A stretch of 63,150 nt of DNA, from NCBI GenBank assembly GCA_902628045.1, contig CACOLU010000005.1, positions 1-63,150 on the forward strand, read 5' to 3'. The translations under genes and the position numbers were made by a program. Below are positions 7,846 to 28,082 of the stretch, one piece after another. This DNA comes from an uncultured Candidatus Actinomarina sp. GTDB taxonomy: Bacteria; Actinomycetota; Acidimicrobiia; Actinomarinales; Actinomarinaceae. Each line of letters starts with the position of its first letter. Position 1 is the first letter of the stretch. A model generated the notes under the pieces. It was given only the letters and a program-made list of their open reading frames with translations, was not told where the DNA came from and searched no databases.

Positions 7846-8256
7846 TTATTTGCAATTTTTACAAAATCCAGAATATATGAAGTGATTTGTTATCTCTCTA
7901 AAATTTGTTTTGCTTGTTATAAGATCGTTTACTTTTTTGGATGTTTTTATATCAAGATCTGAAATATCTCCACAAGATTCACATACAATATGAATATTTG
8001 AGTGAACATCTTTCACAAAATACAAACCTGAACCGTGTACTTGGTGAGAATGTTCAATTAAGTTTATGTTTTCTAAAAGTTCTAATGTTCTGTATACAGT
8101 AGCTAAGTCTATATTTTTATCTTTTTTTAACGAAAGTTTGTGTAGTTCTTCAACAGTAAAATGTTTGTGTCCAGATGTTTCAAGAATTTTGCAAACAACT
8201 TCTCTTGCATTAGTTATTCTCTTGCCTCTTTTTCGTAATTCATTAACGAAATCCAT
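7846..8256 (-). CDS. nur: Fur-family metalloregulator, Nur (nickel uptake regulator)-like
   Basis: KRITNARE, HKHFTVEE, DLATVYRTLELL, HSHQVHG (cf. Nur HAHLGHG), IHIVCESC, NHF..GFCKNC. Start taken at ATG 8256 with TATAAT at 8272-8267. Confidence 0.85.
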   Translation of the reverse strand: MDFVNELRKRGKRITNAREVVCKILETSGHKHFTVEELHKLSLKKDKNIDLATVYRTLELLENINLIEHSHQVHGSGLYFVKDVHSNIHIVCESCGDISDLDIKTSKKVNDLITSKTNFREITNHFIYSGFCKNCK

Positions 8257-8290: not shown

Positions 8291-8764
8291 ATGAAAAAAA
8301 AGTTTCTTAGAATATTAAACAGATACAGTTTACTTTATCTCCCTACCGGATGGGTGCTTGGACTTGCTGTTATTTTTATTGCTTATGAACCAATTACTGT
8401 TCTTTACTTTTTGAGTTTATTTGTTTTAGGTATATTTGGGTTTCTGATTTTTTATACATCAAATAGAGACATGGTTGATGAATCTTATAATGTATCGGAT
8501 TACCAATATTCAATAATTGAGTTTTACTCAGACTACTGACTAGGTTGTACTGCTTCAAAATTCATAGTTGATGAATTTAAAAAGAAAAATCCAGATGTTT
8601 TTTTTGTTTCTATAAATGCAAGTAAGCAAAAAGATCACAAGTTTATTGAAAGATATAAATTAAATAATACTCCAACGTATGTATTGATTAATAATAAAGG
8701 CGAAAAAATTGGAAGAAGAGTTGGTACTTTTTATCCAAAGTATTTCGAAAATAAAATAGTCTAA
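8291..8764 (+). CDS. Membrane-anchored thioredoxin-fold selenoprotein (157 aa; Sec83 in U-L-G-C)
   Basis: N-terminal hydrophobic helices, then IIEFYSDY-TGA-LGC. The frame continues open for 74 codons with Trx features (FFVSINA, YKLNNTPTYVLINNKGEKIGRRVG) to TAA 8762-8764, overlapping the csaA stop. Confidence 0.85.
8558..8578 (+). promoter_or_regulatory. Candidate bacterial SECIS hairpin
   Basis: AAATTCAT-AGTTG-ATGAATTT: perfect 8-bp stem starting 18 nt after the UGA. The 5-nt loop has G at position 2 followed by U, and lies 26 nt from the UGA. Confidence 0.6.
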
Positions 8765-9096
8765 GACACTTTATCACCAAGCTCAGCTTTATCTGATGGC
8801 TGAAGTAGTAAAACATCTCCATTTTTAGATATTGATCCTAGAACTAGGCATTCACTCATAAAAGGCCCTATTTGTTTACTTCCAAGATTTATAATTGCTA
8901 CACAAGGCTTTTCTTTAAGTTCGTCTAAGTCATAGTTTGTTATTTGAGCACTTGTTTTTTTAGTACCAATTAAATCACCAAAATCTATGGTTAATTTGTA
9001 TGCTGGTTTTATAGCTTCTTTAAAAATTTCTGCGTTAATTATTTTTCCAACACGAATATCTAATTCAAAAAAATTAGTTGATTTATCACTTTCCAT
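8761..9096 (-). CDS. csaA: CsaA / Trbp111-like tRNA-binding OB-fold protein
   Basis: LDIRVGKII, KPAYKLTIDFG, KTSAQIT, INLGSKQIGPFMSECLVLG, GDKVS. Confidence 0.92.
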   Translation of the reverse strand: MESDKSTNFFELDIRVGKIINAEIFKEAIKPAYKLTIDFGDLIGTKKTSAQITNYDLDELKEKPCVAIINLGSKQIGPFMSECLVLGSISKNGDVLLLQPSDKAELGDKVS

Positions 9097-27161: not shown

Positions 27162-27293
27162 ATATCTAATGATAAATAGGCAATAATTGTAACTAATATT
27201 TGTAAGCAAAATTTTTACAAGGTTTCATGCTAATTTTTTTAAATTTTGTATAGGTTGAAAAAATTTACATGATTACTTAGAGTTATTAAGTAA

Positions 27294-28082
27294 ATGTTAT
27301 CTGTTCAAAACCTTGAGGTTGTTTATCAGGATGTAATTCTTGTTCTCAGAGGAATATCTTTTGAAATACCAAAAGGAAAAATAGTTGCATTATTAGGAAG
27401 TAATGGTTCTGGAAAAACAACAGTTATTAGATCTATTACTGGACTCTTAGATGTTCAAAATGGAGATATCACCAAGGGAAATATAACAGTTGACGGTGAT
27501 GATATTACTAATTTAAATCCTTCAAAAATTGTAGAAAAAGGTATTGCTCAAGTAATGGAGGGTAGAAGAATTTTTTCTGAACTTTCTGTTGTTGAGAACC
27601 TTCGTTTAGGAGGCCATACTAATAGTTCAAATATTGAGAATAATATTGATAGAGTTCTCGATATGTTTCCAGCTTTAAAAGATAGACAAAAAGGTGAAGC
27701 GGGCTATCTTTCTGGGGGTGAGCAACAAATGTTAGCAATAGGTAGAGCACTTATGTCTGAGCCAGAATATCTTTTACTTGACGAGCCAAGTTTAGGACTA
27801 GCGCCCAAGCTAGTAGATCAAATTGCTGAGTTGATTAAAGAGATCAACGAACAAGGAGTTACTGTGTTACTTGTAGAACAAAATGCAAATATGGCATTAA
27901 ATATATCAGATCATGGATACATCATGGAAACAGGAAATATTGTCATGGATAATGACAGTCAAAAACTACTTAATGATGAAGACGTTAGGGAATTTTATTT
28001 AGGCTTAAATGCTGAAGGAACAAAAAGAAAATCTTTTAAAGATGTTAAGCATTACAAAAGAAAGAAGAGATGGTTATCATGA
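27294..28082 (+). CDS. livF: Branched-chain-type ABC transporter ATPase (LivF-like)
   Basis: GSNGSGKTT, VMEGRRIFSELSVVENL, LSGGEQQMLAIGRALM, LDEPSLGLAP, VEQN. Confidence 0.93.
   Translation: MLSVQNLEVVYQDVILVLRGISFEIPKGKIVALLGSNGSGKTTVIRSITGLLDVQNGDITKGNITVDGDDITNLNPSKIVEKGIAQVMEGRRIFSELSVVENLRLGGHTNSSNIENNIDRVLDMFPALKDRQKGEAGYLSGGEQQMLAIGRALMSEPEYLLLDEPSLGLAPKLVDQIAELIKEINEQGVTVLLVEQNANMALNISDHGYIMETGNIVMDNDSQKLLNDEDVREFYLGLNAEGTKRKSFKDVKHYKRKKRWLS

Follow-up and report, generated by a model that had tools for sequence, protein, structure and literature searches.

A predicted membrane-tethered thioredoxin-like selenoprotein with an in-frame UGA codon in Candidatus Actinomarina

A gene of Candidatus Actinomarina almost certainly encodes, to judge from its sequence, a 157-residue membrane-tethered thioredoxin-like selenoprotein. 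The gene (8291-8764) lies on contig CACOLU010000005.1 of assembly GCA_902628045.1, in a stretch of 63,150 nucleotides (nt) that was analysed whole and is called the window here. Its frame opens with an ATG at 8291 and contains a single TGA, codon 83, within EFYSDY-TGA-LGC. Beyond the TGA, 74 codons stay open before a TAA (8762-8764), which shares 2 nt with the stop of a convergent CsaA-like gene (8761-8763, minus strand). Codon 83 aligns with the first Cys of the thioredoxin CGPC motif, and this UGA is very probably decoded as selenocysteine (Sec).

Ca. Actinomarina ranks with the smallest and most abundant of the ocean's free-living bacteria, and its annotations truncate the gene or mistranslate UGA as Trp. 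A preliminary description of this DNA had drawn the same frame, from the ATG through the lone TGA and the 74 open codons to the TAA that overlaps the csaA stop, and each of these coordinates is confirmed. It had also expected standard annotation to truncate the product; indeed, gene calling under translation table 11 stops at codon 82. Its core proposal, Sec83 in a membrane-anchored thioredoxin, is now supported by the Sec machinery of the genome, by the conserved TGA and reading frame, by Cys and Sec forms paired at one site, and by a selenocysteine insertion sequence (SECIS).

Viewed in this one sequence, neither the frame after the TGA nor the hairpin behind it goes beyond chance. An open frame of at least 74 codons past the TGA occurs in 12 of the 243 TGA-ended open reading frames (ORFs) of this genome, and a 71-nt fold around the hairpin is no more stable than its shuffles. 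Hairpins with an AGUUR loop number 48 genome-wide, as against 45-57 in shuffled sequence. The frame and the hairpin draw their significance from comparison with relatives, not from the single sequence.

Selenocysteine machinery and the candidate SECIS element

The assembly (33 contigs, 0.88 Mb, 32.5% GC, about 70% complete) belongs to Ca. Actinomarina, and the preliminary description was right to see in it a streamlined low-GC actinobacterium. That description had named selA, selB, selC and selD as the genes to look for; all four are present (Table 1), selC being the tRNA-Sec gene. The selB product was accepted on three grounds: alignment across the full model; adjacency to selA; and a SECIS-binding SelB-wing_3 domain (PF09107, 37 bits versus 23.2).

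The candidate SECIS element lies inside the coding sequence. The hairpin AAATTCAT-AGTTG-ATGAATTT occupies 8558-8578, its loop starts 26 nt past the UGA, and loop positions 2 and 3 are G and U. Position, loop and distance are as first described; the 8-bp stem of that description is not, and the conserved stem has 7 bp. Of 45 distinct orthologous sequences, all form the inner seven pairs, but 26 leave the outermost eighth pair (8558/8578) open. One of the stem pairs covaries (38 sequences have U-A, four C-G and three U-G), with no C-A mismatch. Synonymous sites of codons 77-88, the flanks of the TGA included, vary freely. Codons 89-95 are nearly fixed, with TCA, ATA and GTT the sole codons used in 29 of 29 orthologues; in seven-codon windows, synonymous entropy reaches its minimum for the gene at exactly these codons (0.14 bits versus about 1.0 elsewhere).

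The bacterial SECIS (bSECIS) model calls for an apical loop of 3-9 nt, a G within its first two positions, an upper stem of 4-16 bp, and a loop placed 16-37 nt from the UGA (PMC13188914). Here, the loop has 5 nt with G at position 2, the stem has 7 bp, and the distance is 26 nt. The fit to the bacterial model, asserted earlier from the single sequence, is thus borne out by geometry, by synonymous-site constraint and by covariation.

Comparison beyond the gene points the same way. Orthologues carry the loop AGUUG or AGUUA. In L098, a distant homologue with Sec that belongs to another lineage, AGUUG again forms the loop and its position is unchanged, but the stem is a different one, aagccugu/auaggcuu, four compensatory pairs away from that of this gene. 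A hairpin is found at the site in three of four Sec forms (local z from -2.1 to -2.6), and in none of the four Cys forms checked (z from +0.4 to +1.7). Two further selenoprotein families of the genus, a SelW-like CxxU protein (15 distinct sequences) and a TlpA/ResA-like UxxC protein (18 distinct), have the AGUUG or AGUUA pentaloop in all but one sequence per family. Their stems are 6-8 bp long, unrelated and covarying, and from the UGA to the start of the loop there are 16-17 nt. The reading frame in which the loop stands is a different one in the TlpA-like gene, so that the loop is not a protein motif. Across the genome, an in-frame TGA flanked on either side by open frame is followed by an AGUUR-loop hairpin in only four cases, of which three lie in selenoprotein genes and the fourth is intergenic.

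Several observations count against selenocysteine decoding or against this hairpin as its signal. The selB product scores below the curated NCBIfam cut-off (201 versus 242 bits). The stem is short and AU-rich, with a local minimum free energy of -4.7 kcal/mol; a 71-nt segment (8530-8600) folds no better than its shuffles (z = +0.81), whereas a 36-nt window gives z = -2.1. Covariation within the genus is limited to the one base pair, the rest of the stem being invariant. Cys homologues, too, keep the V-D residues that the loop encodes, so part of the loop conservation could be exerted at the protein level. Finally, not every selenoprotein gene of this genome has AGUUR: the loop of the selD hairpin is CAA. 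(An AhpD-like gene has the loop GGUC.) A search of the window with Rfam models at their gathering thresholds returned tRNAs only, and no SECIS family.

Selenocysteine remains very probable all the same. SelB with Sec-tRNA(Sec) would bind the 7-bp AGUUG hairpin 26 nt past UGA-83, and the ribosome would in consequence insert selenocysteine rather than terminate.

A hairpin behind a stop codon might act otherwise. Readthrough of stop codons can be stimulated by downstream structures in general, and a near-cognate Trp or Cys, inserted under stimulation by the hairpin, would yield a mixture of truncated and Sec-free full-length protein. Against this stand the maintenance of a full Sec machinery in a streamlined 1-Mb genome, the placement of the UGA exactly at the catalytic Cys of CxxC, and the recurrence of the same loop motif after the UGA of the SelW-like CxxU and TlpA-like UxxC selenoprotein genes. 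Sec-free readthrough is therefore very improbable, if the least improbable of the alternatives to selenocysteine.

Conservation of the UGA codon and of the reading frame

TGA is an ordinary stop codon in this genome: contig C10 encodes a release factor 2 (RF2) that has the SPF motif; 122 of the 568 long ORFs (21%) end in TGA; and the sole tRNA-Trp bears the anticodon CCA. These facts bear on the possibility that TGA has been reassigned to Trp or Gly (code 4 or 25), which would make the product a single-Cys thioredoxin-like protein. The genome is small and AT-rich, like those of code-4 organisms, and public metagenome gene calls list the protein at 157 residues with W at position 83. This W is nevertheless an artefact, because code 4 was applied in gene calling to short AT-rich contigs (the entries are marked 'with_TGA=W'). 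Moreover, RF2 reads UGA, the sole tRNA with a UCA anticodon is a typical tRNA-Sec, and homologues have at this site the catalytic Cys, not Trp. Reassignment is accordingly scarcely credible. (The full-length deposits with Trp at the Sec position are P0002-P0045, P0059, P0060, P0072 and P0079; code-11 calls of the same genes are fragments of 53-83 residues, in the same clusters.)

The homologues that carry Cys were found in a profile search covering 1.8 billion representatives. The distant homologues are 157-183 residues long, align over the full length, and share an N-terminal NxYS motif, two hydrophobic helices, and a thioredoxin domain in which [C/U]xxC is followed by K-P-x-V-D. In 30 distant representatives of the same architecture, which carry the motif as N-x-[YHNF]-[SA], the residue aligned to U83 is Cys in 21 and 'W' in nine; the codon is TGA in all three of the 'W' representatives checked. 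One Cys form comes from a Chloroflexota metagenome-assembled genome (MAG), and several Cys homologues bear the IMG label 'thiol-disulfide isomerase/thioredoxin'. The preliminary description had asked whether homologues have TGA or Cys at position 83, and both occur: TGA in the orthologues, Cys or TGA in the distant homologues. Cys and Sec forms at one site are the classical signature of a true selenoprotein family.

Within the genus, orthologues are present in 32 of 36 genomes, at 47-99% identity and with one TGA apiece. The first 29 orthologues read all have the identical frame with one TGA. A scan of GTDB genomes by protein pattern gave 51 loci, all of them in Actinomarina, Actinomarinales or OCS155 records except for one contig that is probably misbinned. 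In total, 78 full-length copies (53 distinct) were read; codon 83 is TGA in every one, and 76 have exactly 157 codons without indels; the two most divergent copies vary in length upstream of the TGA. With the same TGA in more than 50 independent assemblies, a sequencing error at this codon is implausible.

The exceptional record (L078, JAKVCV010000044.1) is labelled as a Saprospiraceae MAG (Bacteroidota). It is a 4.7-kb contig on which the Actinomarina order of genes is complete (EcfT, Fur, Trx-Sec, CsaA, FMN reductase, PlsC and YceI), and is almost certainly a misbinned Actinomarina contig. In the five same-genus genomes without the gene, no CsaA match was found either, and PlsC only as a 31% paralogue. 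One of the five (G006) is a close relative as judged by its SelW-like gene (97%), and the absence there probably reflects an assembly gap.

Pairwise dN/dS is 0.18 upstream of the TGA and 0.23 downstream, and dS exceeds 1; such a value downstream, at such a dS, indicates that the downstream part is translated. A pseudogene, or a truncated membrane peptide of 82 residues with the later frame a relic or chance, would agree with standard annotation, which ends at the TGA, and with the equally long open frames behind other TGA-ended ORFs of this genome. However, the downstream frame stays free of indels in 76 of 78 copies down to 47% identity, under the purifying selection just described. The TGA itself is invariant though adjacent synonymous sites vary, and the thioredoxin fold needs both beta1, upstream of the TGA, and the part downstream. 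Disrupted frames after the TGA in relatives, named at the outset as the sign of a pseudogene, were sought and instead all orthologues proved intact. A pseudogene or truncated peptide thus has hardly any probability left. An independent downstream ORF, that is, two genes, was rejected, since past the TGA the frame has no start codon until codon 132 at the earliest, and both the fold and the Pfam match span the TGA.

Codon 86, the second member of the UxxC motif, is nearly invariant in orthologues. In one species (L026/L069, Ca. Actinomarina sp. MAG 02um_A1B0725_3.57), ULGF replaces ULGC, with Phe at codon 86; the resolving Cys is gone there, while Sec and SECIS are retained.

Architecture, proposed function and known relatives

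The preliminary description had placed the TGA at the attacking Cys of the thioredoxin FYADWCxxC motif, in a domain preceded by N-terminal transmembrane helices, and Pfam, AlphaFold2, profile alignment and hydropathy bear this out. The Pfam Thioredoxin model (PF00085) matches residues 70-145, across the TGA, with 26.0 bits against a gathering score of 23.5 (U written as C). AlphaFold2, run with a 20-sequence alignment, returned a model with a mean pLDDT (predicted local distance difference test) of 84.5 and a pTM (predicted template-modelling score) of 0.76. Ahead of the thioredoxin domain come a helix at the N-terminus (2-11) and two long ones (13-31 and 36-57). The domain is a minimal thioredoxin fold, predicted in the beta-alpha-beta ... 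beta-beta-alpha order, and comprises beta1 (73-79), U83 at the start of a helix (84-99), beta2 (103-109), and a cis-Pro motif, T127-P128-T129, before beta3; the redox motif thus stands at the N-terminus of the first helix of the fold. The three cis-Pro residues are invariant or nearly so in orthologues.

In a Foldseek search against the PDB, all top matches are thioredoxins (E about 1e-7, target TM-score about 0.75). Profile alignment to thioredoxin-T (6z7o) sets EFYSDY-U-LGC on DFYADW-C-GPC, and P128-T on the cis-Pro loop. A scan with NCBIfam yielded no model at its cut-off for the selenoprotein, and no curated selenoprotein model matches.

The N-terminus of the protein is short and basic. 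In the Actinomarina clade it has four or five K/R residues and the loop between the helices has none, which predicts both termini inside and a cytoplasmic domain. In most of the distant relatives (among P0059-P0189) the bias is the opposite: K/R residues abound in the loop but not at the N-terminus (67 versus 18 in total), which predicts an extracytoplasmic domain. This suggests that the thioredoxin domain faces opposite sides of the membrane in Actinomarina and in its distant relatives.

Most likely, the protein is a thiol-disulfide oxidoreductase tethered to the membrane, in which the selenolate of U83 would attack a substrate disulfide, or else an oxidised thiol or selenium species, and C86 would resolve the mixed selenenylsulfide.

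Thioredoxin selenoproteins as such are known. One with a UxxC motif (PF00085) has been characterised in Treponema denticola, and the class is listed in PMC9312934 and PMC13188914. The Actinomarina protein resembles it in the thioredoxin fold, the Sec at the attacking position, the resolving Cys three residues on, the cis-Pro loop, and the bSECIS just downstream; it differs in the NxYS motif, the two transmembrane helices, and Y-U-L-G-C instead of W-C/U-G-P-C. Canonical TrxA is more remote: the protein scores 29.9 bits on the NCBIfam equivalog TIGR01068, far below the cut-off of 96.8, and it lacks WCGPC. The TlpA/ResA/DsbE (CcmG) proteins likewise hold a thioredoxin-fold CxxC domain at the membrane, and the K/R-rich loop of the wider family predicts an extracytoplasmic thioredoxin domain as in those proteins. 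However, no model of that group matches at E <= 0.01, and the Actinomarina protein has two transmembrane helices rather than one signal-anchor, no ResA-type insertion, and a domain that charge predicts to be cytoplasmic.

Marine surveys had already come upon selenoproteins of a similar kind: a UxxC 'thiol-disulfide isomerase-like' selenoprotein bin in the Sargasso Sea (PMC1088965, 2005), and the UxxC bins 'Trx-like 1' (COG0526) and 'Trx-like 3' (weak cd02950) in the Global Ocean Sampling data (PMC2398784, 2008). Compared by description only, these bins share the surface-ocean origin, the UxxC motif and the thioredoxin-like fold. They carry no organism assignment, and transmembrane anchoring is absent from the text of the two papers (PMC1088965, PMC2398784).

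A recent preprint on Actinomarina (Nielsen and Lui, April 2026, bioRxiv 10.64898/2026.04.03.716425) reports that each of the 84 complete genomes has selC, selA and selD, along with a selB that is divergent. It counts about five selenoproteins per genome as predicted by deep-Sep, including Sec-SelD and a 78-residue family. Candidates were grouped by their first 20 residues, with most left uncharacterised, and no SECIS was found with Rfam models. The genome analysed here agrees in organism, in its Sec genes, in Sec-SelD, and in a selenoproteome of about five; the word 'thioredoxin' is absent from the main text of the preprint. The Sec trait that the preliminary description proposed for a streamlined actinobacterium is thus upheld, but the novelty it implied is not: the trait was already in the preprint, and thioredoxin-like UxxC proteins are a known marine class.

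What is new here is the fold together with the membrane anchor, the family with Cys and Sec forms, and an AGUUR-pentaloop SECIS consensus for the genus. General knowledge of Sec decoding, or of thioredoxin-fold selenoproteins, is unchanged. The annotation of the gene can thereby be corrected, and the consensus has practical use in a lineage in which Rfam models do not succeed. With about four other targets, the gene would account for the retention of a complete Sec pathway by a 1-Mb genome, and its product may well take part in redox or oxidative-stress chemistry close to the membrane, in surface water under sunlight.

A larger proposal joins these elements. It comprises a selenoprotein family not yet described in explicit terms, defined by NxYS, a membrane anchor of two helices and a thioredoxin U/CxxC domain, with Sec and Cys forms across several marine lineages; a core gene that is syntenic in Actinomarina and accompanied by a Fur/PerR-type regulator; and a lineage-specific SelB code for SECIS, AGUU(G/A) on a 6-8-bp stem 16-26 nt after the UGA. 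That all of this holds together is a tentative proposition, with somewhat less than an even chance. If true, the lineage-specific code could serve to read out the whole selenoproteome of a photoheterotroph that is among the most abundant in the ocean.

Gene neighbourhood and other selenoprotein genes

Table 1. Features of the selenoprotein gene, its neighbours and the Sec machinery (C1 and C6 are contigs of the assembly; remaining positions refer to the window)
Feature	Position	Strand	Remarks
Selenoprotein coding sequence (predicted)	8291..8764	+	157 codons plus TAA stop; ATG at 8291
LNRYS motif, residues 9-13	8315..8329	+	NxYS family signature just before first transmembrane helix; N10, Y12 and S13 invariant
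Two transmembrane helices, about residues 14-30 and 37-53	8330..8449	+	Hydropathy scan; short acidic loop AYEPIT between
Thioredoxin-fold domain, about residues 73-157	8507..8761	+	AlphaFold2, Foldseek, Pfam PF00085
TGA codon 83	8537..8539	+	Read as selenocysteine (predicted); attacking residue of UxxC (U-L-G-C)
TGT codon 86	8546..8548	+	Resolving Cys of UxxC
Candidate SECIS core inside coding sequence	8559..8577	+	7-bp stem 8559-8565/8571-8577; pentaloop AGUUG 8566-8570
Fur-family regulator	7846..8256	-	Pfam FUR, E = 2.5e-23; divergent from selenoprotein gene
CsaA-type tRNA-binding-domain gene	8761..9096	-	Convergent with selenoprotein gene
tRNA-Sec (UCA)	C6:33814-33904	-	75.4 bits, cut-off 47
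selA	C1:70372-71637	-	384 bits; Pfam SelA, E = 6e-97
selB	C1:68738-70360	-	Next to selA, on its downstream side; 201 bits across full model
selD	C6:7286-8311	+	373 bits; own in-frame TGA, motif SHGSG-U-ACK

The order of genes around the selenoprotein gene is conserved in 50 of the 51 loci: an ABC ATPase, EcfT and Fur (all minus), the selenoprotein (plus), CsaA (minus), an FMN reductase (plus) and PlsC (minus). According to the preprint, no gene adjacency is universal in Actinomarina (bioRxiv 10.64898/2026.04.03.716425), in contrast with the pairing of Fur and selenoprotein genes in these 50 loci. The start codons of the two genes are only about 34 nt apart, so both promoters must overlap coding sequence or one another. 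Among NCBIfam models, the regulator is most similar to Fur and PerR, all under cut-off. The conserved divergent regulator of this family hints weakly at metal- or peroxide-responsive control of the selenoprotein.

Contigs with distant homologues have other neighbours. Two of them have an AMMECR1-family gene close to a Cys-form homologue: in L102 it is the adjacent gene, and in L097 it comes three genes downstream. The homologue of L097 is directly followed by a TPMT/TehB-type methyltransferase. An MFS_3 transporter is nearby in two other distant-homologue contigs (the Sec form L094 is among the contigs compared). Actinomarina has none of these neighbours.

Five selenoprotein genes were seen in this genome. 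A genome-wide scan by codon-usage score gave 467 candidates, mostly antisense frames, and was of no use; it was replaced by an overlap filter together with the scan for the loop motif. The fourth match of the latter scan, the hairpin ttacttag-AGTTA-ttaagtaa (8 bp) at 27273-27293 of the window, is intergenic and was not counted as a selenoprotein. It lies between a gene for an HtrA-like protease (ending at 27209, minus strand) and one for an ABC ATPase (starting at 27294, plus strand), and may be terminator-like, regulatory or chance.

Apart from the thioredoxin-like gene and selD, three selenoprotein genes lie outside the window. At C9:31824-32057 (plus strand), a 78-residue protein of the SelT/SelW/SelH family (MEIKLEFCVV-U-NY) scores 45 bits on TIGR02174 (cut-off 34). 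Its SECIS, ucgugc-AGUUG-gcacga, comes 17 nt after the UGA, and the gene with its TGA is present in 20 of the 22 same-genus genomes searched. In length it matches the most abundant, uncharacterised 78-residue family of the preprint. At C16:823-1302 (minus strand), a 160-residue TlpA/ResA-like protein (FWADY-U-GVC) has a lipoprotein-like signal sequence; the gene, with one TGA, is conserved across the genus, and its SECIS, ggcggg-AGUUA-ccuguc, 16 nt after the UGA, has a covarying stem.

The selD hairpin, cucucc-CAA-ggagag, has no GU in its loop, so that selD uses another type of SECIS or else another fold. The remaining gene, at C18:4701-5258 (minus strand), encodes an AhpD-type 'peroxidase-related enzyme' of 186 residues (TIGR01926, 136 bits versus a cut-off of 81.8) that has the motif C-E-Y-U, and a hairpin, cucc-GGUC-ggag, follows downstream.

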